Positions 9,282 through 54,331 of a stretch of 64,000 nt of DNA are shown one piece after another. The notes under the pieces were generated by a model. It made no database searches. It worked only from the letters and a program-made list of their open reading frames with translations, and was not told the origin of the DNA. How positions within the stretch are numbered: the first letter of the stretch is position 1; every line of letters starts with the position of its first letter. The translations under genes and the position numbers were made by a program. The DNA lies in assembly GCF_988242995.1 (NCBI RefSeq), contig NZ_OZ547043.1. One strand, 5' to 3'.

Positions 9282-9821
9282 ATGCAACCACTTACATACC
9301 AACAGACTAGCGGATTTAGCCCGACTGCGGTGATAAATCGTTCTCAAACAAAACAGGTGCCAGGCCACGAAAAAATCCGTGATGCCGTCCGCGCCTGGTC
9401 GGCTGTAGATAATCAGGATGTCGTTGCCACACTCATTGTGAATGAGTATCGGGAGCAGGGCGGCGGCACCATCGATTTCCCTGATGATGTCAGCCGTGCA
9501 CGCCAGAAGCTGTTCCGCTTCCTCGATAACAAATTCGATTCTGAAAAATACCGAAATAACGTGCGTGAACTGACCCCGGCAATTCTGGCGGTACTACCGC
9601 TGGAATATCGCGGTTACCTGGTTGAGCAGGATAGCTTCATGGCTAGGTTGGCTGAAATGGAAAAGGAACTCAGTGAGGCAAAACAGGCTGTCATTCTCAA
9701 CGCACCACGCCACCAGAAACTGAAGGAAATTAGTGAAGGTATTGTGTCGATGTTTCGTGTGGACCCAGATCTGGCTGGTCCATTGATGGCGATGGTTACT
9801 ACCATGCTGGGGGCGATATGA
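9282..9821 (+). CDS. YdaT-like protein at the cII position
   Basis: 179-aa ORF following the Cro-like gene; motif TPAILAVLPLEYRGYL recalls the YdaT family as I remember it. Confidence 0.5.
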   Translation: MQPLTYQQTSGFSPTAVINRSQTKQVPGHEKIRDAVRAWSAVDNQDVVATLIVNEYREQGGGTIDFPDDVSRARQKLFRFLDNKFDSEKYRNNVRELTPAILAVLPLEYRGYLVEQDSFMARLAEMEKELSEAKQAVILNAPRHQKLKEISEGIVSMFRVDPDLAGPLMAMVTTMLGAI

Positions 9822-10837
9822 CAGGTTCAGAAATGGCGAAAGCCGGTCTGCTGGAACAGAACCGACTTTCAGGTGCAAATCGTAACACACTCATTGCGGG
9901 AGGAATTATGGCAAACACTGCTGAGATATTCAATTTTCCAGTGCCGGATGCGGCACAAAAGGAGCCGCGCGTGGCAGATCTCGATGATGGTTATACGCGC
10001 ATTGCAAATGAGTTGCTGGAAGCTGTGATGCTGGCCGGATTAACACAGCACCAGCTTCTGGTCTTTCTGGCTGTCATGCGCAAAACATATGGCTTTAATA
10101 AAAAACTGGATTGGGTTAGCAACGAGCAACTTTCCGAATTAACCGGGATATTGCCGCACAAGTGTTCTGCTGCAAAAAGTGTTCTGGTAAAGCGTGGGAT
10201 TTTTATTCAGAGCGGGCGGAATACCGGCATTAATAATGTGGTCAGTGAATGGTCAACATTACCCGAATCAGGTAAGAGAAATAAAGTTTACCTGAAAGAG
10301 GTAAATTTACCTGAATCAGGTAAAAAAAGTTTACCCAAATCAGGTAAAGGCGTTTACCCGAATCAGGTAAACACAAAAGACAAACTAACAAAAGACAATA
10401 TAAAACCTTTTTCGTCCGAGAATTCTGGCGAATCCTCTGACCAACCAGAAAACGATCTTCCTGTGGTGAAACCGGATGCTGCAATTCAGAGCGGCAGCAA
10501 GTGGGGGACAGCAGAAGACCTGACCGCCGCAGAGTGGATGTTTGACATGGTGAAGACCATCGCGCCATCAGCCAGAAAACCGAATTTTGCAGGGTGGGCT
10601 AACGATATCCGCCTGATGCGTGAACGTGACGGACGTAACCACCGCGACATGTGCGTGCTGTTCCGCTGGGCATGCCAGGACAACTTCTGGTCCGGTAACG
10701 TGCTAAGTCCGGCCAAACTCCGCGACAAGTGGACCCAGCTCGAAATCAACCGAAACAAGCAACAGGCTGGCGTGACAGCCGGCAAACCAAAACTCGACCT
10801 GACGAACACTGACTGGATTTACGGGGTGGAGCTATGA
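9818..10837 (+). CDS. O: Replication initiator O (alternative start ATG 9908)
   Basis: Lambda O-like protein whose coding sequence contains the ori iterons; stop overlaps the P start. Confidence 0.8.
   Translation: MTGSEMAKAGLLEQNRLSGANRNTLIAGGIMANTAEIFNFPVPDAAQKEPRVADLDDGYTRIANELLEAVMLAGLTQHQLLVFLAVMRKTYGFNKKLDWVSNEQLSELTGILPHKCSAAKSVLVKRGIFIQSGRNTGINNVVSEWSTLPESGKRNKVYLKEVNLPESGKKSLPKSGKGVYPNQVNTKDKLTKDNIKPFSSENSGESSDQPENDLPVVKPDAAIQSGSKWGTAEDLTAAEWMFDMVKTIAPSARKPNFAGWANDIRLMRERDGRNHRDMCVLFRWACQDNFWSGNVLSPAKLRDKWTQLEINRNKQQAGVTAGKPKLDLTNTDWIYGVEL
10256..10370. repeat. Phage origin iterons inside O (5 copies of TTTACC(C/T)GAATCAGGTAA-like repeat)
   Basis: Directly repeated about 18-bp units at about 20-bp spacing within the O reading frame, as in lambda ori. 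Confidence 0.7.
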
Positions 10838-11535: not shown

Positions 11536-11774
11536 AGCTAAAATATTAGCTTTAAAATAAAGTATATCTAGCGAATATAATCCAGGACTGGTTGTAATGC
11601 CCGCAATAATTGATTGCGTGAGTAATAAAATTTTTCTTCCATTGTAATCATTTAACCATAAAGTTTATGAGGATATTTTATTTGTGTGTTGATTTTTTTG
11701 TAACGTTCTGTATATTTCGCACCTCTTGTCATACCAGTTATTTTTTTCATTATATTCATAACGTTGATTGAACT

Positions 11775-14700
11775 ATGACCACTGTGAATAAAAAGTTAAA
11801 AAAAACTGCATCTGGCGCGATTACATGGTCAGTAATTGTTACCCAGATATTATCTCCAGTTTCTCTTTCTTTGATTCCGGCAAACAGTTTTGCATCGTCT
11901 GATAATAAAGATGTTACGCAAATTTATGCTAGCGATGAGCGTGCAAATAAAGTGGCCTCATTTGCAGTAAGTGCAGGTCAGAGTCTGGCGAATAATAATG
12001 CAAGTAGTTTTGCTGTAAATACTTTATCAACTCAGGCGACAAAAGAGGTCGTCGATTGGTTGCAACAATATGGCAATGCGCGCATCAAGCTTAATGTCGA
12101 TGATTCTTTTTCCTTGAAGGATTCATCATTCGACTTTTTATATCCATGGCTGGATACTCAGGATTATGTGCTATTCAGTCAGACATCACTACATCGTACT
12201 GATGACCGTAATCAGACCAATATTGGTTTGGGGATTCGTCATTTCACTCCTGATAATGCAATGTTGGGTGCGAATGTTTTCTACGATTATGATTTAAGTC
12301 GCAGCCACTCTCGCGCAGGTTTTGGGGTTGAGTACTGGAGAGATTATTTCAGGTTTGGTGTAAATACCTATTTTGGTTTATCTGACTGGAAGGACAGTCG
12401 GGATATTGATGATTATCTGGAAAGACCCGCAAATGGCTGGGATTTTTCTGCTGAAGGATGGCTACCTGCTTATCCGCAATTAGGGGCATCTATTCAGTTT
12501 GAAAAATATTATGGTAAAAATGTCGGATTATTTGGAAGCGATAATCTGCAGGAAAACCCTTACGCAGTTACTGGGGGAATTTCTTATACACCAGTTCCTC
12601 TGATTAAGTTTTCTGCACAGCATAAGCAAGGACAGAGCAACGTTCACGATACAACCTTTGGTGTTGAGTTTAATTACCGCCCAGGCGTTTCCCTTGCTGA
12701 ACAGCTTAGCAGTGACAATGTTGCAGTTATGCGAGAAGTCCAGAACCGGCGTTATGATTTTGTTGAACGAAATAACAACATTGTTCTGGAGTACAAGAAG
12801 AAGCATGCACTGAAAATCAGCTTACCAGAGTCTGTTCAGGGGGATGGCGAATCAATCATCCCTGTAACACTGACAATCAACAATGCCAGTGGTGGTATCA
12901 AGTCTGTACAGTGGAATGATAGTGTATTCACTGCGGCTGGCGGTAAGATCAGTGGAAATGGCACATCATGGCAGGTCACTTTACCGGCTTATAAAAGCGA
13001 AGGTGTAAATTCGTGGAATGTTGGAGCCACGGTCCAGGATAATAGAGGCAACGTTTCCAACTATGCGGTGATGAATATTAGCGTTATTAATAGTGGTGTC
13101 TCGACAGCGGATTCTTCTTTTATGTTGGATGGAGATTCATCTCCGACGATCTCTGCTGATGGTCAATCCACTCATCCAATAGTATTAAGCCTGAAAGACA
13201 GTAACGGTAAGGCATTAACCGGACTGGCTGATGACATTGAAATGTCAGTGGAATTTACTGCGGATAGCAATAGTGCTCGACAGCGTGAAACGGTAACTGC
13301 CCCGTCATTAGGCGCGGTAGAGGAAATCTCTGCTGGTGTATATCGCTCTGTTCTGACTGCTGGTTCGCAGGCTGGCACAGTACGTGTAACAGCAAAAGTT
13401 CAGGGAAAAACCTTTACTTTGAATATTAAGCAGGCAGCCGTTATTGATAGTGATGTCTCGACAGCGGATTCTTCTTTTACGTTGGATGGTGATTCGTCTC
13501 CGACGATCTCTGCTGATGGTCAATCCACTCATCCAATAGTATTAAGCCTGAAAGACAGTAACGGTAAGGCATTAACCGGACTGGCTGATGACATTGAAAT
13601 GTCAGTGGAATTTACTGCGGATAGCAATAATGCTCGACAGCGTGAAACGGTAACTGCCCCGTCATTAGGCGCGGTAGAGGAAATCTCTGCTGGTGTATAT
13701 CGCTCTGTTCTGACTGCTGGTTCGCAGGCTGGTACGGTACGTGTAACTGCAAAAGTAATGGATAAAACATTTACTCTCAGTATTAAGCAAACAGCAGCAA
13801 CAGAACCTGATTCTGAGGTCAGTGCTGTTTTAACCGCTGCACCAGCAGAACAGGTAGTTGGTTACAATATCAATCTACAACTGGCAGTGAAGGATTCACA
13901 AGGAAATGCAATCACTGGTGATAACACTCTGAGCTTTTATGCTCTTAACCAGGCAGAAGGAGTCGAGTTTGGGGCAGTAACGGAAAAAGACGGTGTCTAT
14001 AGCGCGACAGTAACTTCAAAACGAGCTGGTAAGATTCGGATCGGTGTTAAATCGGGTAGTCACAATTTCTCAGGTATTGAGAAAGAAATCTCCTTTATTG
14101 AAGATCGAACACAGTTCGCATTCTCTCGTATTGAAGCCAGTAAAAATAATGCATTGGCTGACGGCAAACAAAAGAATACGGTGACTGTAAGCCTTGCAGA
14201 TCGTTTCGGCAATGTTGTGCCCGGTTATGCTGTTACGCTGTCCTTACCTGCGGGGGTAACTCAAGTTGGTGGTGAACATGCTGTGTCAACTGACGAAAAC
14301 GGTAATGCTGTTTTTGCGTTAATAAGCTCCACTCCGGGTTCTTACGTGATTAAAGCTCATGCTGGTTCTCAGATGTCTACTGAGTTAACAGTAACCTTTG
14401 CATCAAATATGATCGGAGCTTCACTGTCACTGACGCCTGGAAACAGTAGCTTAATTTCCAATATTCCTGCTAATGGTAAGGATGCTGCGGTATTGAATGT
14501 GCAACTGACAAATACGAATGCGTCGGTCAATGGACAGAAGATTCAGCTCATCACCTCATCTGAAGGATTGTCTGTACCGACAAATATCGTGACTGATTCA
14601 ACAGGGCATGTTTCCGTACCACTTACAACGGTGAGAGCTGGTGAGTATACGGTGGCTGCACGAGTGACTGACGGTTCCCATAGTGTGGAGTCTGGCAGCG

Positions 14701-15683
14701 TTAAGTTAACTTTTGTACCAGATGCTGCTTCCGCAGAACTTACTATGAGTACATCAAAACAGCAGATTGTGGCCGATGGTAGTGAAAGTGCAACAGTGGA
14801 CATTCAGTTGGTTGATGCCAATAACAATGCGTTTACAGGCGATGTGGATTTAACGGTTACACCATCGACGGGAGCATCATTGACCAGTAGTAAACTGCAG
14901 TTGGATGCTCATGGACAGGCAACAACGCAGTTCACAGCATCGAAATCAGGCCAGTACACAATTCAGGCTGAGTATGTTCTAGATGGGAAACGTATAACCG
15001 CAAGCAAAAATATTGATGCCGTGACGGATGTGAAGGAGGCTGTGTTGGAGATCACATCATCTGCATCTTCGGCTGTAGTGAGCGATACCAACAATCTGAT
15101 ATTTACGTTACTGTTGAAAAGTACGTCAGGCGAAGTATTAAGTGGTCGAGTATTGAATATCAAGGCATCTGGGCCGTCCAAATATGGTGCGTTGGTGGTT
15201 GATAAAACCACTGTAACGACTGATGAGTATGGTCTGGCTACGGTAAGCGTACATGGTCGAACGGCTGGTTCGTATAAATTAACGGCGACCTTAGATGAAC
15301 TTGGCAGTGATGTTAGTGAGGTGAAGTCATTCTCTCTGTATGCTGATGAGGCAAATGGAGTATTGACACTGCATAAAGATGGAGGCTATGACACAGATGA
15401 TGGTACTCCAGTGGGGGTTTATGCCCGATTTGTTGACCATTTCGGCAATCCGTTATCTGGTACGGTTGAGTTTTCTGCTGGTAGTGAAGATAGTCCAAAC
15501 TCTCAACTGGTTAAAATGGAGCCTGCTACAGTAACGTTACACTGGACAGGTAATGCAGCCTCGGAGTTCAGCACCTATGAAAGCGGTTATCACTGGATTA
15601 AGGCCAAAATAACGAACAGCAAAAATACATATGAGAAAACAATAAGGACTTATGTTGTAAAGCTCCCTGAAAAGGATAGTTAA
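11775..15683 (+). CDS. Inverse-autotransporter (intimin/invasin-family) adhesin with repeated Ig-like domains
   Basis: 1302-aa ORF: long signal peptide, beta-barrel-like N-terminal region, then many Big-type repeats; AT-rich upstream region. Confidence 0.75.
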   Translation: MTTVNKKLKKTASGAITWSVIVTQILSPVSLSLIPANSFASSDNKDVTQIYASDERANKVASFAVSAGQSLANNNASSFAVNTLSTQATKEVVDWLQQYGNARIKLNVDDSFSLKDSSFDFLYPWLDTQDYVLFSQTSLHRTDDRNQTNIGLGIRHFTPDNAMLGANVFYDYDLSRSHSRAGFGVEYWRDYFRFGVNTYFGLSDWKDSRDIDDYLERPANGWDFSAEGWLPAYPQLGASIQFEKYYGKNVGLFGSDNLQENPYAVTGGISYTPVPLIKFSAQHKQGQSNVHDTTFGVEFNYRPGVSLAEQLSSDNVAVMREVQNRRYDFVERNNNIVLEYKKKHALKISLPESVQGDGESIIPVTLTINNASGGIKSVQWNDSVFTAAGGKISGNGTSWQVTLPAYKSEGVNSWNVGATVQDNRGNVSNYAVMNISVINSGVSTADSSFMLDGDSSPTISADGQSTHPIVLSLKDSNGKALTGLADDIEMSVEFTADSNSARQRETVTAPSLGAVEEISAGVYRSVLTAGSQAGTVRVTAKVQGKTFTLNIKQAAVIDSDVSTADSSFTLDGDSSPTISADGQSTHPIVLSLKDSNGKALTGLADDIEMSVEFTADSNNARQRETVTAPSLGAVEEISAGVYRSVLTAGSQAGTVRVTAKVMDKTFTLSIKQTAATEPDSEVSAVLTAAPAEQVVGYNINLQLAVKDSQGNAITGDNTLSFYALNQAEGVEFGAVTEKDGVYSATVTSKRAGKIRIGVKSGSHNFSGIEKEISFIEDRTQFAFSRIEASKNNALADGKQKNTVTVSLADRFGNVVPGYAVTLSLPAGVTQVGGEHAVSTDENGNAVFALISSTPGSYVIKAHAGSQMSTELTVTFASNMIGASLSLTPGNSSLISNIPANGKDAAVLNVQLTNTNASVNGQKIQLITSSEGLSVPTNIVTDSTGHVSVPLTTVRAGEYTVAARVTDGSHSVESGSVKLTFVPDAASAELTMSTSKQQIVADGSESATVDIQLVDANNNAFTGDVDLTVTPSTGASLTSSKLQLDAHGQATTQFTASKSGQYTIQAEYVLDGKRITASKNIDAVTDVKEAVLEITSSASSAVVSDTNNLIFTLLLKSTSGEVLSGRVLNIKASGPSKYGALVVDKTTVTTDEYGLATVSVHGRTAGSYKLTATLDELGSDVSEVKSFSLYADEANGVLTLHKDGGYDTDDGTPVGVYARFVDHFGNPLSGTVEFSAGSEDSPNSQLVKMEPATVTLHWTGNAASEFSTYESGYHWIKAKITNSKNTYEKTIRTYVVKLPEKDS
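13083..13796. repeat. Near-perfect tandem duplication (2 x 357 bp) inside the adhesin gene
   Basis: 13083-13439 and 13440-13796 differ at only a few positions; each encodes one 119-aa Ig-like repeat. Confidence 0.9.
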
Positions 15684-15694
15684 CAAAACAGAAT

Positions 15695-15722
15695 AGGGAG
15701 GGCTAAGCCCTCCCACTTTTTA
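15695..15722 (+). terminator. Rho-independent terminator after the adhesin gene
   Basis: GGGAGGGCT-AA-GCCCTCCC hairpin followed by a T-run. Confidence 0.6.
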
Positions 15723-15981
15723 ATTGAGACGGACTGTTTCTTAAATTCACTTACGTTAGATATGAACTGGTTATTTTTTATAACAATAAAAGACTTTTGA
15801 TTTTTGAATATCAGTAAGTAATAATGATTTACGTCGACAGACTGAACATCTGTTGGTGACTTCTGCGCTAAACGGGGACGTTTATGCGCACATACAATCT
15901 AAACTCTCTTCTCTCTTCACAGATGCAGAAATGCACCTGCGATTCTTTGCATCCAACGTTTGACCTCTGCGGAGGTGAAGC

Positions 15982-23116: not shown

Positions 23117-23636
23117 ATGGAAGTCAACAAAAAGCAGCTGGCTGACATTTTCGGTGCGAGTATCCGTACCATTCAGAACTGGCAGGAACAGGGAATGCCC
23201 GTTCTGCGAGGCGGTGGCAAGGGTAATGAGGTGCTTTATGACTCTGCCGCCGTCATAAAATGGTATGCCGAAAGGGATGCTGAAATTGAGAACGAAAAGC
23301 TGCGCCGGGAGGTTGAAGAACTGCGGCAGGCCAGCGAGGCAGATCTCCAGCCAGGGACTATTGAGTACGAACGCCATCGACTTACGCGTGCGCAGGCCGA
23401 CGCACAGGAACTGAAGAATGCCAGAGACTCCGCTGAAGTGGTGGAAACCGCATTCTGTACTTTCGTGTTGTCGCGGATCGCAGGTGAAATTGCCAGTATT
23501 CTCGACGGGATCCCCCTGTCGGTGCAGCGGCGTTTTCCGGAACTGGAAAACCGACATGTTGATTTCCTGAAACGGGATATCATCAAAGCCATGAACAAAG
23601 CAGCCGCGCTGGATGAACTGATACCGGGGTTGCTGA

Positions 23637-23662
<26 letters not shown>
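23117..23662 (+). CDS. nu1: Terminase small subunit
   Basis: 181-aa ORF near-identical to lambda Nu1. Confidence 0.95.
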
Positions 23663-27343
<3,681 letters not shown>

Positions 27344-33491: not shown

Positions 33492-35239
33492 AACTGGCAC
33501 CGAACTTAAAAAAACAGCCACGCGACAGACTGACAGAGGTAATCATCTTTGCAGGTAGTGATGCGTGGAGCCATGCGAAAGAGTGGCGGGAATGGGCGGG
33601 TAAACATATTGCCGCCGACGATGTGCCGCCTGTCGTGCTGGCTGATGAGCAACTGAAAAATATCACCGATTACCGGATCATTGATGAAGATCGTCAGTGT
33701 GTGCGTGTTTACCGCGCAGGACATATCACAGAGCACAGCATGACGCAGATTGTTACGTTACTGGCTGTGGCTGGAGTGAAGACCGTACACGAATACGCGG
33801 GGATTACTGACACCAGCCCAGTGGATTTATCCGAGCAGTTGCCGCGACTCAAAGAGGAATGCGAGCGTGGGGAAAGTCTGGTGCTTAATCTTCCGACGAA
33901 GCAAAAGGCGCAACTTTCACAGATGGCAGACAGTGAACGTGCACAACTACTTGCCGATCGCTTTGATGGTGTGTGTGTTCATGCAGAAAGTGAAATCGTC
34001 CACGTATGGCGCGGCGGGGTATGGTGTCCGGTCAGCACAATGGAGCTGAGCCGCGAAATGGTGGCGATCTATTCAGAGCACAGGGCCACGTTCAGCAAAC
34101 GTGTAATCAATAACGCCGTGGAAGCGTTAAAAGTTATTGCCGACCCCATGGGGGAGCCGTCCGGTGATTTGCTACCGTTCACTAATGGTGTGCTTAACCT
34201 GAAAACGGGGGAATTTTCTCCGCACTCGCCGGAGCACTGGAGCACCACGCACAATGGCATTGAGTACACGCCACCAGTAGCAGGGGAAAACATCCGCGAT
34301 AATGCGCCAAATTTCCATAAATGGCTTGAACATGCTGCAAGAAAAGACCCGCGCAAGATGATGCGTATATGTGCCGCGTTATACATGATTATGGCGAACC
34401 GCTACGACTGGCAGATGTTCATTGAGGCCACCGGAGACGGGGGAAGCGGTAAGAGTACATTTACCCATATTGCCACCCTGCTTGCTGGCAAACAGAACAC
34501 CGTAAGCGCGGAGATGACATCACTCGATGATGCAGGAGGGCGCGCGCAGGTTGTCGGGAGTCGTCTTATCGTCCTTGCCGATCAGCCGAAATATACGGGG
34601 GAAGGCACGGGCATCAAGAAAATCACGGGAGGCGATCCCGTTGAAATTAACCCGAAATATGAGAAGCGATTCACGACGATAATAAGGGCGGTGGTACTGG
34701 CAACCAATAACGACCCGATGATCTTTACCGAACGGGCCGGAGGTGTGTCACGCCGTCGGGTGATTTTCCGGTTCGACAACATTGTAAGGGAGGACGAAAA
34801 AGACAAGGAATTACCGGAAAAGATAGCGGCAGAAATCCCCGTAATTATCCGCCGCTTGCTGGCTAATTTTGCTGACCCTGAAAAGGCACGGGCTTTATTA
34901 CTGGAACAGCGTGACGGTGATGAAGCTCTGGCAATAAAGCAGCAAACGGATCCGGTTGTTGAGCTTTGCGCGGCGCTGGAGTTTCTGGAGGAAGCTCGTG
35001 GGCTAATGATGGGCGGTGGTGGTGACACCGTGAAGTACACGACCAGAAACAGCCTTTACCGTGTCTATATGGCCTTCATGGCATACACAGGAAAGGGGAA
35101 ATGTTTGAGCGTGAATGAGTTCGGAAAGGCTATGAGGTCAGCGGCGAAAGTTTACGGATATGAATATATTACGCGAAAAGTTAAGGGAGTCACGCAGACC
35201 AACGCAACGACTACTGATGATTGCGATGCGTTTTTATAA
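33488..35239 (+). CDS. Primase/SF3-helicase replication protein
   Basis: 583-aa ORF with Walker A (TGDGGSGKST) in the C-terminal half and primase-like N-terminal half; followed by iterons. Confidence 0.8.
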   Translation: MKLAPNLKKQPRDRLTEVIIFAGSDAWSHAKEWREWAGKHIAADDVPPVVLADEQLKNITDYRIIDEDRQCVRVYRAGHITEHSMTQIVTLLAVAGVKTVHEYAGITDTSPVDLSEQLPRLKEECERGESLVLNLPTKQKAQLSQMADSERAQLLADRFDGVCVHAESEIVHVWRGGVWCPVSTMELSREMVAIYSEHRATFSKRVINNAVEALKVIADPMGEPSGDLLPFTNGVLNLKTGEFSPHSPEHWSTTHNGIEYTPPVAGENIRDNAPNFHKWLEHAARKDPRKMMRICAALYMIMANRYDWQMFIEATGDGGSGKSTFTHIATLLAGKQNTVSAEMTSLDDAGGRAQVVGSRLIVLADQPKYTGEGTGIKKITGGDPVEINPKYEKRFTTIIRAVVLATNNDPMIFTERAGGVSRRRVIFRFDNIVREDEKDKELPEKIAAEIPVIIRRLLANFADPEKARALLLEQRDGDEALAIKQQTDPVVELCAALEFLEEARGLMMGGGGDTVKYTTRNSLYRVYMAFMAYTGKGKCLSVNEFGKAMRSAAKVYGYEYITRKVKGVTQTNATTTDDCDAFL

Positions 35240-35252
35240 AAAATGGCAATGG

Positions 35253-35482
35253 TTATCTACCTTGTCTACCTGACTGAAAGAAAATACTTTTATTTCAATG
35301 TATTAATGCAGGTAGATAACTATTTTTCACTGTCTACCTGTTATCTACCTTATCTACCCATTTTTGTAGACAGGTAAGGAGACGGGTAGAGATGAGGTAG
35401 ACAGCTATTTGGGGCTGTCTACCTCCCTGAAACCCGCGCCATTACTGGCCTGATAACTAATCAGGTAGACAAGGTAGACAAG
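35253..35482. repeat. Satellite replication origin iterons (at least 10 copies of GGTAGACA/TGTCTACC in both orientations)
   Basis: Dense cluster of the 8-bp core in a 230-bp non-coding stretch just 3' of the primase gene. Confidence 0.75.
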
Positions 35483-35528
35483 GTGGTGGTGCACAAAAAA
35501 CTTTTTAAACGAGGGGGTAAAAATAAAA

Positions 35529-35786
35529 ATGCACACATCAGGAAAACTGAACAAACATATAAAGCCACATTACCGCGCCCTTGATATGGCTGAACACTGG
35601 CTAAGGGTGGCGATTAAGGCAATAGACCGCAACGCCGGGGAAGGATACGCGAAAGCACATCCCGAACTGATAAGCGCATTCATGACAACGGCGGCTGCAA
35701 ACTTTGCCACGCTGACCGAACGGGAGATTGCTGAAGCGGAGGAAGTGACAACAATCAATATTAAGTCCGGAGAGCAGGCAGCATGA
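35529..35786 (+). CDS. Hypothetical protein
   Basis: 85-aa ORF upstream of and coupled to ssb. Confidence 0.4.
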   Translation: MHTSGKLNKHIKPHYRALDMAEHWLRVAIKAIDRNAGEGYAKAHPELISAFMTTAAANFATLTEREIAEAEEVTTINIKSGEQAA

Positions 35787-36232
35787 CGGCGCAAATATCA
35801 GTTTACGGGCGGTTGGTGGACGACCCGCAGACAAAACAGACCAGCAAGGGCACCCCCATGACGCTGGCGCGTATGGCGGTATCACTGCCCTGCAGTCAGT
35901 CGGATGACGGTCTGGCGACGTTGTGGTTATCTGTCCTGGCGTTTGGCAGACAAGCCGACGCGCTGGCAAAGCATCACAAAGGCGAACTCCTGAGCGTGGC
36001 GGGTAACATGCAGATGAGCCAGTGGACTGGACAGAACGGCGAAACGCGGCAGGGCTGGCAGGTTATCGCAGACAGCGTAATCAGTGCGCGATCGGTGCGA
36101 CCGGGCGGCAAAAAAGGCCAACAGGGGCAGGCTACTGACGCACTGAACAGAGCAAAACAACAGGCAGATCAGCAAGGAAGCCAGCCACCAGAGGGAGATA
36201 ATGAGCAATGGGGAGATGATATCCCGTTTTAA
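35783..36232 (+). CDS. ssb: Single-stranded DNA-binding protein
   Basis: 149-aa ORF with Gly/Gln-rich linker and acidic C-terminal tail ending DDIPF. Confidence 0.8.
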   Translation: MTAQISVYGRLVDDPQTKQTSKGTPMTLARMAVSLPCSQSDDGLATLWLSVLAFGRQADALAKHHKGELLSVAGNMQMSQWTGQNGETRQGWQVIADSVISARSVRPGGKKGQQGQATDALNRAKQQADQQGSQPPEGDNEQWGDDIPF

Positions 36233-36448
36233 ATATTGCCAATAAAAAAAGCCGGAAAAAATAAATTTTCCGGCATGCTACATAAATCCCGACCAAAGGG
36301 AGTGAAGATATTAACACTAATTGTCCGCACTGAAGTTGTCACCCCAAAACTTTATACAACATTGCACTCGGTTGCATGTGTTCGCATGACAAATATCGGT
36401 GATAGCATATATCCACAATTATTTTTAATGAATGCAAAGAGGATGCGT

Positions 36449-37489
36449 ATGGTTGATTTATATTCGCCTACTCAGCTTGTACAGGTAGTTAATGCTGTAG
36501 ATGTACAAAAACAACTAAATGCGTTATTTACCAGTTTGTTTTTTACTCGCTCGGTAATGTTTGAATCGCGCGATATTATTCTTGATACAATCGACGATCC
36601 AAATATCCCAATTGCAGCGTTTTGTTCTCCTATGGTGGGTAGTAAAGTTTCACGTGACGAAGGGTACGAATCAAAAACAATTCGTCCAGGCTATATGAAG
36701 CCGAAAAGCAGCATTGATCCAAATAAGTTAGCTGTGCGCCCTGCTGGTGTGTCACCTGAGCAATACAATGCTTTTGGGGCGCGTAATATTAAAGTTAAAC
36801 AGGCGATTGTAAATCAGGCTAAAGCTATTCGTGCACGTATTGAATGGCTTGCTGTTCAGGCAATCACAACGGGGAAAAATATCATTGAGGGCGATGGTAT
36901 TGAACGTTATGAGCTGGACTGGAATATAAAACCACAAAATATCATCACTCAGTCTGGCGGTACTGAGTGGTCAGGTAAGGATAAAGAAACTTTTGATCCA
37001 AATGATGATATTGAGAGCTACGCAGAATTTAGTGAGGGCGTCACTAATATCATCATTATGGGTGGTAATGTATGGAAGAAATACCGTTCATTCAGAGCGA
37101 TAAAAGAGGCTTTGGATACCCGTCGTGGTTCTAATTCCGAACTGGAAACGGCCCTTAAAGACCTTGGTGATTCGGTGAGTTTTAAAGGGTATATGGGCGA
37201 TGTTGCGATTGTTGTTTACAGCGGGCGTTATACCGACGAGGACGGAACAGAAAAACATTTCCTTGATCCTGATTTGATGGTGCTTGGCAATACGGCTCTT
37301 CAGGGGATTGTCGCCTATGGCGGTATTCAGGATCCGGAGCTAATCCGAATGGGGCTGACTAAAGCCGAACTTGCACCGAAAAACTATATTGTGCCTGGTG
37401 ATCCGGCTATTGAATATGTGCAGACACATTCAGCACCACAGCCAATACCGGCCCGCATCAATCGTTTTGTTACCGTTCGCATTGGCTAA
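36449..37489 (+). CDS. Satellite-encoded major capsid protein homologue (lambda E-like)
   Basis: 346 aa; aligns with lambda E along its length (e.g. IITQSGGTEWSGKDKETFDPNDDIESYA vs NITQSGGTEWSKRDKSTYDPTDDIEAYA; DTRRGSNSELETALKDLG; GDVAIVVYSG). Confidence 0.8.
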   Translation: MVDLYSPTQLVQVVNAVDVQKQLNALFTSLFFTRSVMFESRDIILDTIDDPNIPIAAFCSPMVGSKVSRDEGYESKTIRPGYMKPKSSIDPNKLAVRPAGVSPEQYNAFGARNIKVKQAIVNQAKAIRARIEWLAVQAITTGKNIIEGDGIERYELDWNIKPQNIITQSGGTEWSGKDKETFDPNDDIESYAEFSEGVTNIIIMGGNVWKKYRSFRAIKEALDTRRGSNSELETALKDLGDSVSFKGYMGDVAIVVYSGRYTDEDGTEKHFLDPDLMVLGNTALQGIVAYGGIQDPELIRMGLTKAELAPKNYIVPGDPAIEYVQTHSAPQPIPARINRFVTVRIG

Positions 37490-37498
37490 GGGGGAGCA

Positions 37499-37840
37499 AT
37501 GGCTACTCATTACACTGAACTCATGGCTGGCACTGAAGCACTGGTGACTACGCTGGGGATATTTTCAGCTAATAAAGGGGTAATTCCTGCATTTACGCCA
37601 CTGATGCAGGAAGATGCAACAGGTGCACTGGTGGTATGGGATGGTTCGAGCGTAGGTAAAGCGGTTTATGTTTCCGCTGTACAAATCGACACCGCGAAAA
37701 AAACACAGGCTCAGGTCTATAAGACAGGTGTCTTAAATGTTGATGCTCTGAACTGGCCTGAGTCTGTTAAAGAACTGTCAGTAAAGGTTGCAGCGTTTGT
37801 TGGCTCAGGTATTTCTGTTCAGCCGCTGGCTCGTGTGTAA
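37499..37840 (+). CDS. Satellite-encoded head decoration protein homologue (lambda D-like)
   Basis: 113-aa ORF; TPLMQEDATGALVVWDGSSVGKAV...VYKTG parallels lambda [22 protein letters not shown]...FYKSG. Confidence 0.7.
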   Translation: MATHYTELMAGTEALVTTLGIFSANKGVIPAFTPLMQEDATGALVVWDGSSVGKAVYVSAVQIDTAKKTQAQVYKTGVLNVDALNWPESVKELSVKVAAFVGSGISVQPLARV

Positions 37841-37851
37841 AGGGGGATACA

Positions 37852-38235
37852 ATGCAGAATGATTACAATGACCTTAAGCCAATTGCCGAAATGATGTACC
37901 CGAATCCAGCTGTAGAGGAATTAAAAGCTATCGCTGACAAAATGTGTTTAAGCGAGCGCCTTGTTGATATGAATCAGGTGATGGAAATTACAACCCTGAG
38001 TCGTCGTACACTGCTAAACCTTGAGGCTAGTGGAGAGTTCCCGGAGCGTGTGCAGGTTACGGAAGGGCGTAAGGCCTGGTATTTAAGTGAAGTGATCGAC
38101 TGGATAAATAATATTCCTCGCGCTTCTGAATATTGCCGCGTACCTGTCCCAAAAAAGCCAGATGCGGCGCTATGCCTCAAGATTGAGCGTGTACGCCGCA
38201 ATGCACGGGATGGTCGCTATAAGCTGATTGGTTGA
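37852..38235 (+). CDS. Winged-HTH (AlpA/MerR-excisionase-like) protein adjacent to satellite cos
   Basis: 127-aa ORF; C-terminal MEITTLSRRTLLNLEASGEFPERVQVTEGRKAWYLSEVIDWINN HTH; strong RBS; ends 20 bp before the cos-homologous region. Confidence 0.6.
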   Translation: MQNDYNDLKPIAEMMYPNPAVEELKAIADKMCLSERLVDMNQVMEITTLSRRTLLNLEASGEFPERVQVTEGRKAWYLSEVIDWINNIPRASEYCRVPVPKKPDAALCLKIERVRRNARDGRYKLIG

Positions 38236-38257
38236 TGAAATTAGGGCCCGCTCTGGC

Positions 38258-38465
38258 TGGCGGGTCCTTTCCGGTGATCCAGAACGTTACGGGGCGTCAG
38301 GCGCGCAGATTCTTGCTATTTATGACAATTTTCTGCGATTTGCCGTTTCCGTTCTTCTTCCTCGTAACTTAGTGTTTTTACTAGAAATACCCTCTAAAAA
38401 GAAAGGAAATGACAGGTGCTGAAAACAGGCTTTTGGGTCTCCGTCATTTCCTTTCTCATTTTTAT
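38258..38465. promoter_or_regulatory. Satellite cos site homologous to the prophage cos (variant cosN GGGCGTCAGGCG at 38292-38303)
   Basis: About 210 bp alignable with 22896-23110; flanking and downstream repeat segments conserved, 12-mer differs at 5 positions. Confidence 0.75.
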
Positions 38466-38718
38466 CTAAAAGTAAGCATCGAGGCCACCCCAAATGCTTA
38501 TAGAGGTTATTGTGTCACTATGCGTACTGTTCAGGATTTAAAGTAGCAAGACATCTAGTTGCTTGCAGTTTTGGCGAATGATGTGAGGTTCTCTATAACA
38601 GATAATGTAACAAGTTACTGATATATTCTGTTATGGTTGACTTTAAATTTTGTTGCTCCTTCAATGAATTATTGAGGGGTAAAAATTAGGCGTGATAAGA
38701 ATCGATCACGCCTATTGT

Positions 38719-40035
38719 TTATCTTGAAGAAATTTTAGGCAGGCTTTTTAAAAATAAATCTTTATTTCTACTTGCATCAGTTAAAAGTGTTAGGAATATT
38801 TTATCTGTAGGAGTGCATGTGCTCTTGTTTAACAGTAATTCACCAAGTTTCTGTAATCGAGAGAATTGCCCATCCTCTTGGATTCTGTGACGAAGTGTAC
38901 TATCATTTTTAATAACATCAACAAATGCAGAAACCATGTTAATATCAAAGTGTTCAAACATTTCCAATATTAAAGGTGCAGCCCCATTTGAATAAAAATT
39001 CTTCCTTCCATACTGATAGCTGAAACCACGATGGCCAACATAAGTTTTTGTAATGGCTGAAACAAATTCAACAATATTATCTTCAGGGACGAAACTCGAG
39101 AATGGTAATAATTGGGTTACGATTTTTTCCTCTTCTGACCAATTATCTAAAGACTCGGTGAGTTTATTAATGAGAGGCTCAATAATAACTTTTCGGGATG
39201 CAGGGCTAATATACATCAGTCCATCTACCAATAGTATGAATTGTTGTGCCTTCTCTATCTTATTGTTGTTTCCTGAAACTAAATACTTGTCAAATTGTTG
39301 GCCGACTTTACGTCGGTCGTCTTTTGAAAGTAATGTCCATAAAATAGGTGCGCAAAATTCAATGTTGTTTCTGAGTTCACTTGATATATTGGATGAGCAG
39401 TATGTGCCAAAAAAACGAGAGGATAATTCACTGATATAAATTGCAGGTAGATCTGAAAAGGCTTGCTTAACTGCCAGACTATTTTTATTAAATGTTGCCG
39501 AATCCATTTCTGAAAGATATGTAGTTATATCTATGATGGCTGGTGGAAACTCTTTAGAAAGAACGTATTTATTACAATCATTAATCAGGTTCACTACTTT
39601 GATTAAATCAGGGTCGCTACTTTGTGGATGTCCACCAAATAGATTCCTGGTTTCTCTAGCTTGTTGTAATAGTTTCTGACCTTCTCGATCGATAACTCCT
39701 ATTTTAAATGCTCCATCTATTAAATCAAAGTCGCTCACATAATCCTGAAAATCTTCATACGTTTTAATTTCTTTTTTTTGTTTACACTCTTTGTTGAATA
39801 GATCTAGGCTACGATGAATTATCTTTTGACGTAAATCATCAACTACAGCATTCCAGTAAGCAGTGATGGCACTTCTATAACCTTTTACAGGAAGAACTCT
39901 TATTGCTTCTGAAATATATGGGCAGTCAACTACATCATGCCTCACAGTTGAGAGCGCAGTTTGTAACAATGTAACTTCTGTAGAGTCTAGTGGAGTTGGC
40001 TGCACTAAATGAGAACTTATCTCTGTACCCTTCAT
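38719..40035 (-). CDS. AT-rich 438-aa protein with HEPN-like R-x5-H motif (candidate anti-phage/abortive-infection protein)
   Basis: Single long ORF in the satellite's variable end; RNLFGGH at residues 130-136; no ATPase motifs; own AT-rich promoter region 40036-40150. Confidence 0.6.
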   Translation of the reverse strand: MKGTEISSHLVQPTPLDSTEVTLLQTALSTVRHDVVDCPYISEAIRVLPVKGYRSAITAYWNAVVDDLRQKIIHRSLDLFNKECKQKKEIKTYEDFQDYVSDFDLIDGAFKIGVIDREGQKLLQQARETRNLFGGHPQSSDPDLIKVVNLINDCNKYVLSKEFPPAIIDITTYLSEMDSATFNKNSLAVKQAFSDLPAIYISELSSRFFGTYCSSNISSELRNNIEFCAPILWTLLSKDDRRKVGQQFDKYLVSGNNNKIEKAQQFILLVDGLMYISPASRKVIIEPLINKLTESLDNWSEEEKIVTQLLPFSSFVPEDNIVEFVSAITKTYVGHRGFSYQYGRKNFYSNGAAPLILEMFEHFDINMVSAFVDVIKNDSTLRHRIQEDGQFSRLQKLGELLLNKSTCTPTDKIFLTLLTDASRNKDLFLKSLPKISSR

Positions 40036-40393
40036 TTCAGGATTTTCCTATTCTTTTCCATTTTTCTACTCTATTGAATTTGAAAAAGATATCAAGTTCG
40101 TTCTTGCCAGTTTTAAGTGGAAAATTTGATGTTACCTTATTGAGATAAGGCAGTTCTCTATAACCTATTGTTATTAATTATTTTTATTTTTTTCCAATTC
40201 AGATGTTTAGGGCTAAGAAGTTAAGTGAGAGTTCACAGCAAAACTGCTTCTAGTTCCTCACCGAGGAGCAAAAGGTTAAGACAGCGTACTTTGTATTGCA
40301 CAATGTATTGCAGAACCTTCTTTCGAAAGCTACAACAATCAATTTTATATTGAAAATTCAATCATATCCTTTCGATATTGACTCATATAACCC

Positions 40394-41179
40394 AAGCATG
40401 AGGTGAATCCGCAGATGACCCTGCGTCGCCTGCCGGATGAAGATCCGCAGAATCTGGCGGACCCGGCTTACCGCCGCCGTCGCATCATTATGCAGAACAT
40501 GCGTGACGAAGAGCTGGCCATTGCCCAGGTCGAAGAGATGCAGGCAGTTTCTGCCGTGCTTAAGGGCAAATACACCATGACCGGTGAAGCTTTCGATCCG
40601 GTTGAGGTGGATATGGGCCGCAGTGCGGCCAACAACATCACGCAGTCCGGCGGCACGGAGTGGAGCAAGCGTGACAAGTCCACGTATGACCCGACCGACG
40701 ATATCGAAGCCTACGCGCTGAACGCCAGCGGAGTGGTGAATATCATCGTGTTTGATCCGAAAGGCTGGGTGCTGTTCCGTTCCTTCAAAGCCGTCAAGGA
40801 GAAGCTGGATACTCGTCGCGGCTCTCATTCCGAGCTGGAGACAGCGGTGAAAGACCTGGGCAAAGCGGTGTCCTACAAGGGGATGTATGGCGATGTGGCC
40901 ATCGTCGTGTATTCCGGACAGTACGTGGAAAACGGCGTCAAAAAGAACTTCCTGCCGGACAACACGATGGTGCTGGGGAACACTCAGGCACGCGGTCTGC
41001 GCACCTATGGCTGCATTCAGGATGCGGACGCACAGCGCGAAGGCATTAACGCCTCTGCCCGTTACCCGAAAAACTGGGTGACCACCGGCGATCCGGCGCG
41101 TGAGTTCACCATGATTCAGTCAGCACCGCTGATGCTGCTGGCTGATCCTGATGAGTTCGTGTCTGTACAACTGGCGTAA
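40394..41179 (+). pseudogene. E: Major capsid gene E, 3' fragment (codons 83-341)
   Basis: From KHEVNPQMTLRRLPDEDPQ... to ...DEFVSVQLA, matching lambda E downstream of the break. Confidence 0.9.
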
Positions 41180-41181
41180 TC

Positions 41182-41208
41182 ATGGCCCTTCGGGGCCATT
41201 TTCTCTCT
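41182..41208 (+). terminator. Hairpin plus T-rich tract after E
   Basis: ATGGCCC-TTCG-GGGCCAT followed by TTTCTCTCT. Confidence 0.4.
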
Positions 41209-41220
41209 GTGGAGGAGTTC

Positions 41221-41619
41221 ATGACGAAAGATGAGCTGATTGCCCGTCTTCAGGAGCTGGGTGAGCAACTGAACCGCGATGTCAGTTTGACGGGAACGAA
41301 AGAAGAACTGGCGCTTCGTGTGGCAGAGCTGGAAGAAGAGCTTGATGACACGGATGAAACTGCCGGTCAGGACACCCCTCTCAGCCGGGAAAATGTGCTG
41401 ACCGGGCATGAAAATGAGGTGGTATCAGCGCAGCCGGATACCGTGATTCAGGATACGGCTGAACTGGTCACGGTCGTGGCACTGGTGACGCTGCATACTG
41501 ATGCGCTTCACGCCACGCGGGATAAACCTGTGGCATTTGTGCTGCCGGGAACGGCGTTTCGTGTCTCTGCCGGTGTGGCAGCCGAAATGACAGAACGTGG
41601 CCTGGCCAGAATGCAATAA
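41221..41619 (+). CDS. FI: DNA-packaging protein FI
   Basis: 132 aa from MTKDELIARLQELGEQL..., matches lambda FI; GGAGG RBS. Confidence 0.9.
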   Translation: MTKDELIARLQELGEQLNRDVSLTGTKEELALRVAELEEELDDTDETAGQDTPLSRENVLTGHENEVVSAQPDTVIQDTAELVTVVALVTLHTDALHATRDKPVAFVLPGTAFRVSAGVAAEMTERGLARMQ

Positions 41620-41630
41620 CGGGAGGCGCT

Positions 41631-41984
41631 GTGGCTGATTTCGATAACCTGTTCGATGCTGCCATTGCCCGCGCTGATGAAACGATACGCGGGTACATGG
41701 GAACGTCAGCCACCCTGACATCCGGTGAGCAGTCCGGTGCTGTGATACGTGGTGTTTTTGATGACCCTGAAAATATCAGCTATGCCGGACAGGGCGTGCG
41801 CGTTGAAGGCTCCAGCCCGTCCCTGTTTGTCCGGACTGATGAGGTGCGGCAGCTGCGGCGTGGAGACACGCTGACCATCGGTGAGGAAAACTTCTGGATA
41901 GACCGGGTTTCGCCGGATGATGGCGGAAGCTGTCATCTCTGGCTTGGGCGTGGCGTGCCGCCTGCCGTTAACCGTCGCCGCTGA
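41631..41984 (+). CDS. FII: Head-tail connector FII
   Basis: 117-aa ORF matching lambda FII. Confidence 0.9.
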   Translation: MADFDNLFDAAIARADETIRGYMGTSATLTSGEQSGAVIRGVFDDPENISYAGQGVRVEGSSPSLFVRTDEVRQLRRGDTLTIGEENFWIDRVSPDDGGSCHLWLGRGVPPAVNRRR

Positions 41985-41995
41985 AGGGGGGATGT

Positions 41996-42574
41996 ATGGC
42001 CATAAAAGGTCTTGAGCAGGCCATTGAAAACCTCAGCCGTATCAGCAGAACGGCGGTGCCTGGTGCCGCCGCAATGGCCATTAACCGCGTTGCTTCATCC
42101 GCGATATCGCAGTCGGCGTCACAGGTTGCCCGTGAGACAAAGGTACGCCGGAAACTGGTAAAGGAAAGGGCCAGGCTGAAAAGGGCCACGGTCAAAAATC
42201 CGCAGGCCAGAATCAGGGTTAACCGGGGGGATTTGCCCGTAATCAGGCTGGGTAACGCGCGGGTTGTCCTTTCGCGCCGCAGGCGTCGTAAAAAGGGGCA
42301 GCGTTCATCCCTGAAAGGTGGCGGCAGCGTGCTTGTGGTGGGTAACCGTCGTATTCCCGGCGCGTTTATTCAGCAACTGAAAAATGGCCGGTGGCATGTC
42401 ATGCAGCGTGTGGCCGGGAAAAACCGTTACCCCATTGATGTGGTGAAAATCCCGATGGCGGTGCCGCTGACCACGGCGTTTAAACAAAATATTGAGCGGA
42501 TACGGCGTGAACGTCTTCCGAAAGAGCTGGGCTATGCGCTGCAGCATCAACTGAGGATGGTAATAAAGCGATGA
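41996..42574 (+). CDS. Z: Tail completion protein Z
   Basis: 192-aa ORF matching lambda Z. Confidence 0.9.
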   Translation: MAIKGLEQAIENLSRISRTAVPGAAAMAINRVASSAISQSASQVARETKVRRKLVKERARLKRATVKNPQARIRVNRGDLPVIRLGNARVVLSRRRRRKKGQRSSLKGGGSVLVVGNRRIPGAFIQQLKNGRWHVMQRVAGKNRYPIDVVKIPMAVPLTTAFKQNIERIRRERLPKELGYALQHQLRMVIKR

Positions 42575-42660
42575 AACATACTGAACTCCGTGCAGCCGTA
42601 CTGGATGCACTGGAGAAGCATGACACCGGGGCGACGTTTTTTGATGGTCGCCCCGCTGTT

Positions 42661-43371
42661 TGTGCACAGAAAACCCCCAGCTAGGCTGGGGGTTCCGGAA
42701 AGCTTTCAGCTTTGAGCCAGTTATTAAAACCCCTTTTGATTTGTTAAAACACCTTGCGGTCTGGCAACTGCAAGTGTCAAACAAGAAATCAAAAGGGGGT
42801 CCCAATGGGGAACGAAAAGAGCTTAGCGCACACCCGATGGAACTGTAAATATCACATAGTTTTTGCGCCAAAATACCGAAGACAGGTGTTCTACAGAGAG
42901 AAGCGTAGAGCAATAGGCAGTATTTTGAGAAAGCTGTGTGAGTGGAAAAGCGTACGGATTCTGGAAGCTGAATGCTGTGCAGATCATATCCATATGCTTG
43001 TGGAGATCCCGCCCAAAATGAGCGTATCCGGGTTTATGGGATATCTGAAAGGGAAAAGCAGTCTGATGCTTTACGAGCAGTTTGGTGATTTGAAATTCAA
43101 ATACAGGAACAGGGAGTTCTGGTGCAGAGGGTACTACGTCGATACAGTGGGTAAGAACACGGCGAAGATACAGGATTACATAAAGCACCAGCTTGAAGAG
43201 GATAAAATGGGAGAGCAGTTATCGATTCCCTATCCGGGCAGCCCGTTTACGGGCCGTAAGTAACGAAGTTGGATGCAAATGTCAGATCGTGTGCGCCTGT
43301 TAGGGCGCGGCTGGTAAGAGAGCCTTATAGGCGCATTTGAAAAACCTCCGGCTATGCCGGAGGATATTTAT
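42661..43371 (+). mobile_element. IS200-family insertion sequence (about 711 bp)
   Basis: Left-end hairpin AAACCCCCAGCTAGGCTGGGGGTT, Y1-type transposase gene, right-end hairpin CCTCCGGC-TAT-GCCGGAGG; interrupts U. Confidence 0.85.
42805..43263 (+). CDS. tnpA: IS200 transposase TnpA (Y1 HUH)
   Basis: 152 aa from MGNEKSLAHTRWNCKYHIVFAPKYRRQ... with HxH (HIHML) motif. Confidence 0.9.
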   Translation: MGNEKSLAHTRWNCKYHIVFAPKYRRQVFYREKRRAIGSILRKLCEWKSVRILEAECCADHIHMLVEIPPKMSVSGFMGYLKGKSSLMLYEQFGDLKFKYRNREFWCRGYYVDTVGKNTAKIQDYIKHQLEEDKMGEQLSIPYPGSPFTGRK

Positions 43372-43684
43372 TTTGATGAGGCGGATTTTCCGGCAGTTGC
43401 CGTTTATCTCACCGGCGCTGAATACACGGGCGAAGAGCTGGACAGCGATACCTGGCAGGCGGAGCTGCATATCGAAGTTTTCCTGCCTGCTCAGGTGCCG
43501 GATTCAGAGCTGGATGCGTGGATGGAGTCCCGGATTTATCCGGTGATGAGCGATATCCCGGCACTGTCAGATTTGATCACCAGTATGGTGGCCAGCGGCT
43601 ATGACTACCGGCGCGACGATGATGCGGGCCTGTGGAGTTCAGCCGATCTGACTTATGTCATTACCTATGAAATGTGAGGACGCT

Positions 43685-44425
43685 ATGCCTGTACCAAATC
43701 CTACAATGCCGGTGAAAGGTGCCGGGACCACACTGTGGGTTTATAAGGGGAACGGTGACCCTTATGCGAACCCGCTTTCAGACGTGGACTGGTCGCGTCT
43801 GGCAAAAGTTAAAGACCTGACGCCCGGCGAACTGACCGCTGAGTCCTATGACGACAGCTATCTCGATGATGAAGATGCGGACTGGACTGCGACCGGGCAG
43901 GGGCAGAAATCAGCCGGAGATACCAGCTTCACGCTGGCGTGGATGCCCGGAGAGCAGGGGCAGCAGGCGCTGCTGGCGTGGTTTAATGAAGGTGATACCC
44001 GTGCCTATAAAATCCGCTTCCCGAACGGCACGGTCGATGTGTTCCGTGGCTGGGTCAGCAGTATCGGTAAAGCGGTGACGGCGAAGGAAGTGATCACCCG
44101 CACGGTGAAGGTCACCAATGTGGGACGCCCGTCGATGGCAGAAGATCGCAGCACGGTCACAGCGGCAACCGGCATGACCGTGACGCCTGCCAGCACCTCG
44201 GTGGTGAAAGGGCAGAGCACGACGCTGACCGTGGCATTCCAGCCGGAAGGCGCAACCGACAAGAGCTTCCGTGCGGTGTCTGCGGATAAAACAAAAGCCA
44301 CCGTGTCGGTCAGTGGTATGACCATCACCGTGAAAGGTGTTGCTGCAGGCAAGGTCAACATTCCGGTCGTATCCGGTAATGGTGAACTTGCTGCGGTTGC
44401 AGAAATCAACGTTACCGCCAGTTAA
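43685..44425 (+). CDS. V: Major tail protein V
   Basis: 246 aa from [22 protein letters not shown]..., matches lambda V. Confidence 0.9.
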
Positions 44426-44440
44426 TCCGGAGAGTCAGCG

Positions 44441-48857: not shown

Positions 48858-48861
48858 TCCC

Positions 48862-50144: not shown

Positions 50145-50204
50145 TGAAAAACGTTTTATGTGAAACCGCCTCCGGGCGGTTTTATCGTTTATGGAGCATG
50201 ACGA

Positions 50205-54321: not shown

Positions 54322-54331
54322 TGGAGTGGAT

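Follow-up and report, generated by a model that had tools for sequence, protein, structure and literature searches.

How old is a tandem repeat whose two copies are almost, but not quite, the same? The question is raised by an adhesin gene in assembly GCF_988242995.1, on contig NZ_OZ547043.1, of which a stretch of 64,000 nucleotides (nt) was analysed (the window). The window belongs to an Escherichia coli chromosome, and the gene lies in a lambdoid prophage integrated beside tRNA-Arg. It encodes an inverse autotransporter with two consecutive 357-bp units in its passenger region, each specifying one immunoglobulin-like (Ig-like) domain. A first-pass annotation, made from the letters of the window, had read the units as a very recent in-frame duplication. 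Comparison of the units with each other, and with alleles of the same gene in other genomes, gives another answer: the duplication is old, and its two copies have been kept alike by recombination in their central part only.

The repeat array and the age of the duplication

Tandem Repeats Finder places the array at 13082–13789, with a period of 357, 2.0 copies, 95% matches, 0% indels and a score of 1295. The first-pass annotation had drawn the two units at 13083–13796, a register in which 21 of 357 positions differ between 13083–13439 and 13440–13796 (94.1% identity). Set in codon register (Table 1), the 714-bp feature begins three positions earlier, and its units differ at 22 of 357 nt and 9 of 119 amino acids (aa), corresponding to identities of 94% and 92%, with no indels. 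The two consecutive units are real, and the array keeps the reading frame of the open reading frame (ORF) 11775–15683 on the plus strand, as had been claimed. Identity at an offset of 357 drops to ~25–34% directly outside both units, close to the window-wide background at this offset (0.268 +/- 0.052).

Near-identical 357-bp repeats with exact tracts of 100–133 nt are a known assembly hazard, and the two units might in principle have arisen by collapse or expansion of a different true number. The repeat number of the Yersinia ruckeri adhesin YrIlm was underestimated 4–5 fold in short-read assemblies (PMC6868369), and the one-unit form of the window's own lineage is found mostly in drafts. For the window itself, however, an artefact has only a minimal probability. 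The same 3909-bp two-unit gene is present in ~50 finished genomes of the window's allele lineage, from unrelated studies, and the identical 1302-aa protein is coded by hundreds of draft contigs. In addition, the 22 differing sites tell the units apart and anchor reads unambiguously. The two-unit call is sound. The warning of an assembly hazard in the first-pass annotation is reasonable in general but has no bearing on this call; it does hold for alleles whose internal units are identical, and for short-read drafts in which one unit is called.

The differences between the units are not evenly distributed. Identity is 91% over 13083–13139, 99.5% over 13140–13360, and 81% over 13361–13439, and the longest exact run (133 nt) falls within the central segment. 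The units had been described as differing at a handful of positions; they are indeed near-identical, but the true count is 21–22, and the description missed the strong clustering, with 21 of the 22 differences in the outer 136 nt (Fisher P 8e-9). Synonymous divergence between the copies is 0.29 at the edges (head 0.14, tail 0.40) and falls to 0.00 over the 74 codons of the core. Had the core diverged at the edge rate, 16.4 synonymous differences would be expected there, whereas none is observed (Poisson P 7.6e-8).

A very recent tandem duplication, in which the ~21 differences are mutations accumulated since, would account for the high overall identity, for the absence of indels and for the 99.5% identity of the core. 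It would, however, be expected to spread those mutations evenly along the units, and the synonymous divergence of the edges (0.29–0.40) is far greater than the ~6% that separates the two clades of alleles described below. On these grounds, together with the diverged edges that both clades have in common, a very recent duplication is considered very unlikely.

The identity of the core could alternatively reflect strong purifying selection on a functional surface, rather than recombination. The core codes most of the β-sandwich, where conservation of amino acids is expected. Selection at the protein level leaves synonymous differences in place, however, and as it cannot remove them, their absence from the core points to recombination between the copies. 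Purifying selection alone would also give no account of the lineage-specific core substitutions that are common to all units of an allele. The synonymous-site test speaks against it as the source of core identity, and it is rejected as highly improbable.

The age of the duplication follows from comparison across lineages. Outside the repeat, alleles of the gene fall into two clades that are ~199 of 3195 nt (6.2%) apart. Both clades display the same array architecture, with the same first head, internal junction and last tail. In all lineages, heads and tails group by their position in the array (first or internal for heads, internal or last for tails), and internal and terminal edges differ by 5–14 and 6–7 nt, the differences being the same throughout. 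Cores, on the other hand, are 0–3 nt apart among units of one allele, versus 4–12 nt across lineages. Because clades 6.2% apart have the same position-specific edges and internal junction, the duplication predates their split; the core is near-identical, and looks young, because recombination homogenises it. The duplication is thus old, and the units have evolved in concert since the clades separated. The very recent origin proposed in the first-pass annotation is not upheld, as it describes the appearance of the core only.

Units that are more alike within an allele than between alleles would also result from fresh duplications, had each lineage duplicated the domain independently from a one-unit ancestor. 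Such duplications would leave the internal tail equal to the last tail and the internal head equal to the first head, in conflict with the edge differences given above. Moreover, the one-unit alleles are chimeras derivable from multi-unit sisters, with 0–3 flanking differences. Independent duplication is accordingly judged extremely unlikely, and a single old duplication followed by concerted evolution is preferred.

Unit number among isolates and exchange between units

The adhesin gene is present in 560 of 5426 finished E. coli genomes (~10%). It occurs there at the same prophage position in lengths of 3552, 3909, and 4266 bp, which are steps of exactly one unit. A large protein database contains the matching ladder of proteins (1183, 1302, 1421, and 1540 aa), with units spaced exactly 119 aa. 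For a census of units, finished genomes were searched by BLAST using one unit with 300-bp flanks as the query, each unit giving one matching place. One unit was found in 83 genomes (~84 records), two in ~109 records, and three in ~367; the two- and three-unit figures are algebraic estimates from the totals (1403 places, 560 records) and not exact counts. A systematic sample of 40 rows gave 6 one-unit, 7 two-unit, and 26 three-unit cases. The three-unit form, commonest among finished genomes, is the allele sampled in strains of sequence type 131 (ST131) such as JJ2434. The first-pass annotation had anticipated that expansion and contraction could change adhesin length, and had proposed a comparison of repeat number among isolates. 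Run on finished genomes, this comparison finds 1, 2, or 3 units, and with the protein ladder the range is 1–4 units in 119-aa steps, which directly bears out the expectation.

Five of the ~1400 matching places fall on plasmid records, and in some genomes the number of places reaches 6–8. Extra places may represent a second copy of the gene, or finished genomes may contain arrays that exceed three units. A protein of 1064 aa (P0121), which is the length of the one-unit form less 119 aa (1183 - 119), was considered as a zero-unit allele and rejected. In this protein the first passenger domain (...SVQWN) is fused to residue 66 of the unit (ARQRE...) by an aberrant in-frame deletion that disrupts two Ig-like domains. 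Either an illegitimate deletion or an error of assembly may account for it.

Closely related alleles with different unit numbers show how the array changes. In non-repeat sequence (3195 nt), strains PAR (two units) and 4750 (one unit) have 0 differences, JJ2434 (three units) and TUM14697 (one unit) have 1, and the window (two units) and TUM14771 (one unit) have 3. At least three independent changes in unit number are needed, each on a background with no more than 3 substitutions; therefore, units are gained and lost no less often than point substitutions arise in the other 3.2 kb of the gene. Each one-unit allele is a clean chimera, which combines the head of its relative's first unit with the tail of that relative's last unit and is otherwise unchanged. 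As one-unit copies of the window's lineage in drafts (L008–L010) and in a scaffold-level assembly (L011) could be products of collapse, finished genomes were searched, and TUM14771 (L012) was found. TUM14697 (H96) was rejected as a one-unit allele of this lineage, as it falls in the other clade, at a distance of 198 nt. TUM14771 and drafts L008–L010 have unit 1 states at diagnostic sites 1–194 and unit 2 states at sites 297–355, and the crossover maps to an identical tract between these sites (Table 1). The one-unit alleles are derived by loss, because fresh duplication of a one-unit allele cannot yield the diverged internal junction. In three-unit alleles, the middle unit consists of an internal head and an internal tail, matching the prediction for unequal crossing-over.

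It is very probable that these observations are best explained by an old two-unit array of Ig-like stalk domains, the core of which has been homogenised, and the unit number shifted, by exchange between units. One stalk domain would have been duplicated before the two clades split. Homologous exchange between the units would since have overwritten the central ~220 nt repeatedly, whether by unequal crossing-over, gene conversion or replication slippage over the long identical tract, and the outermost head and tail, being out of reach of such exchanges, would have diverged. The same exchanges would gain or lose whole 357-bp units in frame, giving rise to alleles with 1, 2, 3, and 4 units (1183 to 1540 aa). 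Candidate agents are RecA, replication slippage, or the prophage's own Red system; exo, bet, and gam genes are annotated in the prophage of the matching record NZ_CP159453.1, which contains a 100%-identical adhesin gene.

Several points weigh against this explanation. The mechanism of exchange is deduced from its products. The two- and three-unit figures are estimates from BLAST places, checked only on the 40-row sample, and a few records with 4–6 places have no unit number assigned. The four-unit (1540-aa) form has been seen on draft contigs only. In the window's lineage, one-unit copies are likewise mostly in drafts and possibly collapsed, with the one finished genome, TUM14771, in support. 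Lastly, the locus is not hypervariable, given that copy number is uniform within clones (ST131, RIVM series).

This uniformity argues for occasional homologous exchange, and not for a hypermutable switch. Phase-variable contingency loci have repeats of 1–8 bp that switch a reading frame or promoter, whereas the unit of the adhesin gene is 357 bp and always in frame. The locus instead shares all three characteristics of adhesins with recombining near-identical domain repeats, namely unit identity, in-frame variation in number, and concerted evolution.

The adhesin and its relatives

Each unit corresponds to one Ig-like domain, as proposed in the first-pass annotation. Taken alone, the units match Pfam Invasin_D3 at 45.9 and 41.7 bits (cut-off 33), over residues 9–111 of 119. 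A single Ig-like domain of FdeC (PDB entry 4E9L, residues 289–385; whole-chain E 2.8e-7) can be aligned with the unit over its full length. The match to this best domain is weak (23.6 bits, domain E 5.5e-4), and the unit has an insertion of ~13 residues. An AlphaFold2 model of residues 430–560, built from a 10-sequence domain alignment, has eight predicted strands and a mean predicted local distance difference test score of 85.1. The last strand stops at the unit boundary, and the model is weak only in the ~13-residue insertion. In a Foldseek search of the PDB, the best matches of the unit model were Ig-like domains of InvE, FdeC, InvD, invasin, and intimin (D00–D0); the alignment to FdeC has E 1.6e-5, a template modelling (TM) score of 0.65, and 22% identity.

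Table 1. Features of the adhesin gene and its surroundings, in window coordinates
Feature	Position	Strand	Description
Upstream intergenic region	11536..11774	+	Presumed promoter region, the role being inferred; AT-rich, 28% GC (guanine plus cytosine)
Inverse autotransporter (type Ve) adhesin gene	11775..15683	+	Prophage cargo; ORF of 1302 aa; Pfam IAT_beta; annotation of 100%-identical NZ_CP159453.1
Predicted N-terminal signal peptide	11775..11894	+	aa 1–40; ...PANSFA/SSDN (slash marks the putative cleavage site), translation inspected by eye
Inverse-autotransporter β-barrel domain	11979..12776	+	aa 69–334; PF11924
First passenger domain	12777..13079	+	aa 335–435, unique; no Pfam family at E<=0.01; ~25% identity to the units at offset 357
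Repeat unit 1	13080..13436	+	aa 436–554; one Ig-like domain; first head and internal tail
Homogenised core of unit 1	13140..13360	+	Partner in unit 2 is 13497–13717; 1 of 221 nt differs, 0 synonymous
Mapped crossover interval	13274..13375	+	Equals 13631–13732 in unit 2; 102-nt identical tract joining unit 1 and unit 2
Repeat unit 2	13437..13793	+	aa 555–673; one Ig-like domain; internal head and last tail
Five more Ig-like (Big_1/Invasin_D3) domains	13794..15299	+	Mutually divergent; Pfam hits per segment
C-terminal tip	15300..15680	+	~127 aa; presumed binding tip; Big_1-like DxFGNPLSG motif (DHFGNPLSG)
Terminator-like GC-rich hairpin	15696..15714	+	GGGAGGGCTAAGCCCTCCC, then T-run; pattern scan; 13 nt past the stop codon

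The protein as a whole has the layout of an inverse autotransporter, with an N-terminal barrel and a passenger of tandem Ig-like domains both present, so that the description of its gene as an adhesin gene stands. The Pfam model PF11924 (IAT_beta) matches the barrel at 336.7 bits (cut-off 22.3, E 1.7e-100) over model positions 16–279 of 279, and the 100%-identical gene in NZ_CP159453.1 is annotated as 'inverse autotransporter beta domain-containing protein'. The barrel follows a putative signal peptide with a basic n-region, a hydrophobic stretch and an A-x-A-like site (SFA/SS), seen by eye. C-terminal of the barrel, Pfam finds 5–6 stretches of Big_1/Invasin_D3 in the whole protein, with further hits when it is searched segment by segment. 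The other Ig-like domains are only 24–32% identical in amino acids to the repeat unit.

Pfam and PDB sequence searches gave no match for the last 127–147 residues. Among 1.84e9 cluster representatives, very few proteins extend into the last 70 residues of the tip, and most of these are short fragments. Searches for a lectin-like tip with Pfam, against PDB sequences and exhaustively with HMMER found none. Judged from sequence, membership among the inverse autotransporters still stands with no C-type lectin-like tip, as the lectin tip is optional.

The closest precedent is YrIlm. This chromosomal adhesin has more than 20 DNA-identical Ig-like repeats of ~300 bp and a C-type lectin cap, and its repeat number differs from strain to strain and is collapsed when short reads are assembled (Wrobel et al. 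2018 J Struct Biol 201:171, summarised in PMC6868369). Both proteins are inverse autotransporters with identical or near-identical tandem Ig-like stalk domains, a unit of ~300–357 bp, a number that varies among strains, and a corresponding assembly hazard. In contrast to YrIlm, the prophage adhesin has 1–4 units with diverged outer edges, no detectable lectin domain, and a prophage location.

FdeC (EaeH) resembles the prophage adhesin in having an all-Ig-like passenger with no lectin cap, one domain of which aligns with the unit, but the weakness of that match and the insertion in the unit set the two apart. PMC6714894 places the fdeC orthologue at a conserved chromosomal position and reports no near-identical repeats in it. 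Strains with the prophage adhesin gene also have a separate fdeC.

In IatC, IatD, YeeJ, and intimin, as in the prophage adhesin, a PF11924 barrel is followed by Big_1-type repeats. However, the adhesin scores far below the curated NCBIfam cut-offs, and its size and locus differ. Intimin, invasin, YeeJ, IatC, and IatD also have a C-type lectin-like tip domain, in contrast to the prophage adhesin, where none was detected. The adhesin is far below each of the cut-offs for intimin, IatC, SinH/IatB, YrIlm, Ilp, Inv, and YchO. The best-scoring model is IatC (NF040978, 397.6 versus a cut-off of 2400), and the remaining scores include intimin (NF033627, 333 versus 1400), SinH-IatB (NF033423, 321 versus 999), YrIlm (NF040981, 300 versus 750), and YchO-IatA (NF007556, 273 versus 508). 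By these profile scores, the adhesin belongs to none of the intimin, IatC, SinH-IatB, YrIlm, and YchO-IatA families.

Goh et al. (2019) defined seven groups of E. coli inverse autotransporters, and found no variation in repeat number in IatC and IatD (PMC6714894). Two strains of their set, JJ2434 and SaT040, are negative for yeeJ, iatC, and iatD, and are listed with only fdeC, iatA, and iatB (PMC6714894), yet both carry the prophage adhesin gene (in JJ2434 at L005 2694–6959). As the adhesin is not fdeC either, it is not among the families named in that survey. No description of a prophage-borne E. coli inverse autotransporter was found in the literature searched, the coverage of which was incomplete and is no proof of absence.

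Prophage setting and implications

The adhesin gene sits between replication protein P and the ybcN–ninE–ybcO–rusA block, by the annotation of NZ_CP159453.1. Its GC content is 43.9%, compared with ~48.5% in the phage flanks. Insertion between conserved phage modules (replication P and the nin region), lower GC than the flanks, an AT-rich upstream region, and a hairpin with T-run past the stop codon are features that it shares with lambdoid morons such as bor/iss and lom. It differs from these in that no match to the gene was found among 50,697 sequenced phage genomes, and in that promoter-like matches upstream are at chance level. Promoter-like hexamers occur at 11552–11581, 11689–11716, and 11726–11753, but such matches are no more frequent than in shuffled sequence (11 versus 10.2). 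The layout appears to be that of a prophage cargo gene, or moron, with putative autonomous transcription.

Further cargo is annotated in the same prophage of the matching record. A gene for the serum-survival lipoprotein iss is located at L001 31642–31935 (by offset, window ~23416–23709), and the nin/Q region contains a lipocalin gene, a YbgA-family gene, and an insertion sequence of the IS3 type. Alleles of the other clade have an α/β hydrolase gene (WP_000700202.1) on the opposite strand between the adhesin gene and ybcN (L002 7589–8632, L003/L004 7946–8989, L005 6996–8039, L007 6084–7127). The window's clade lacks this gene, which is absent at window ~15700–15980. In strain AREA_504 (H39, NZ_CP123321.1 4931319–4936183) an IS3-family element interrupts the adhesin gene, and in strain 4993 an ISEc23 (IS66 family) element is found immediately downstream of it. 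Colinearity of the window with NZ_CP159453.1 is lost past the tape-measure region (window ~34700–50200). The J gene is at window 50205, versus ~39695 expected from NZ_CP159453.1, and the prophage tail regions differ by ~10 kb.

Two other repeats were observed in the window. Direct repeats of 19, 23, and 43 bp (TTTACCYGAAWCAGGTAAA...) cluster at 10259–10371 in ORF 9818–10837 (+), within the replication O-like gene, which in lambdoid phages houses the iterons of the origin. Another in-frame tandem repeat is present at 54869–55303 in ORF 54326–56722 (+), with a period of 189 bp (63 aa), 2.3 copies, 82% matches, and sub-periods of 21 and 42 bp. It codes Ala/Ser/Thr-rich 'KAAKTSETNAK...' repeats within the N-terminal portion of a tail-fibre-like product of 798 aa, whose ORF lies downstream of both the J host-specificity ORF (50205–53600) and an ORF for a Lom-like outer-membrane protein (53668–54267).

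Variation in the number of domain repeats is already familiar in adhesins, and the phenomenon itself is not new. In intimin, invasin, and FdeC, the Ig-like domains build a rod that holds the tip out from the membrane. By analogy, each unit would lengthen a rod-like stalk, and gain or loss of a unit should shift the reach of the adhesin tip from the outer membrane by one domain; this length may be under selection. It is tempting to go further, and to speculate that the gene represents an eighth, unnamed family of E. coli inverse autotransporters carried as lambdoid-prophage cargo, with a stalk length adaptively tuned in steps of one Ig-like domain and with Red-driven changes in unit number possible during induction. 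Such a combined scenario seems unlikely at present. If adaptive tuning were true, the number of units (1–4, with three in the ST131-type allele) could, for example, serve to project the tip past a given O-antigen or capsule layer.

The alleles with 1, 2, 3, and 4 units form a natural series in backgrounds 0–3 nt apart, which are near isogenic, and the series is suited to the study of stalk length in relation to surface exposure and adhesion. The array is also a small-scale instance of concerted evolution in which an old duplication passes for a recent one, and calls for caution in dating duplications by overall identity. Short-read assemblies may misreport the length of the adhesin. As the adhesin is phage-borne and unnamed in the main survey of E. 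coli inverse autotransporters, typing schemes and lists of vaccine antigens may overlook it.

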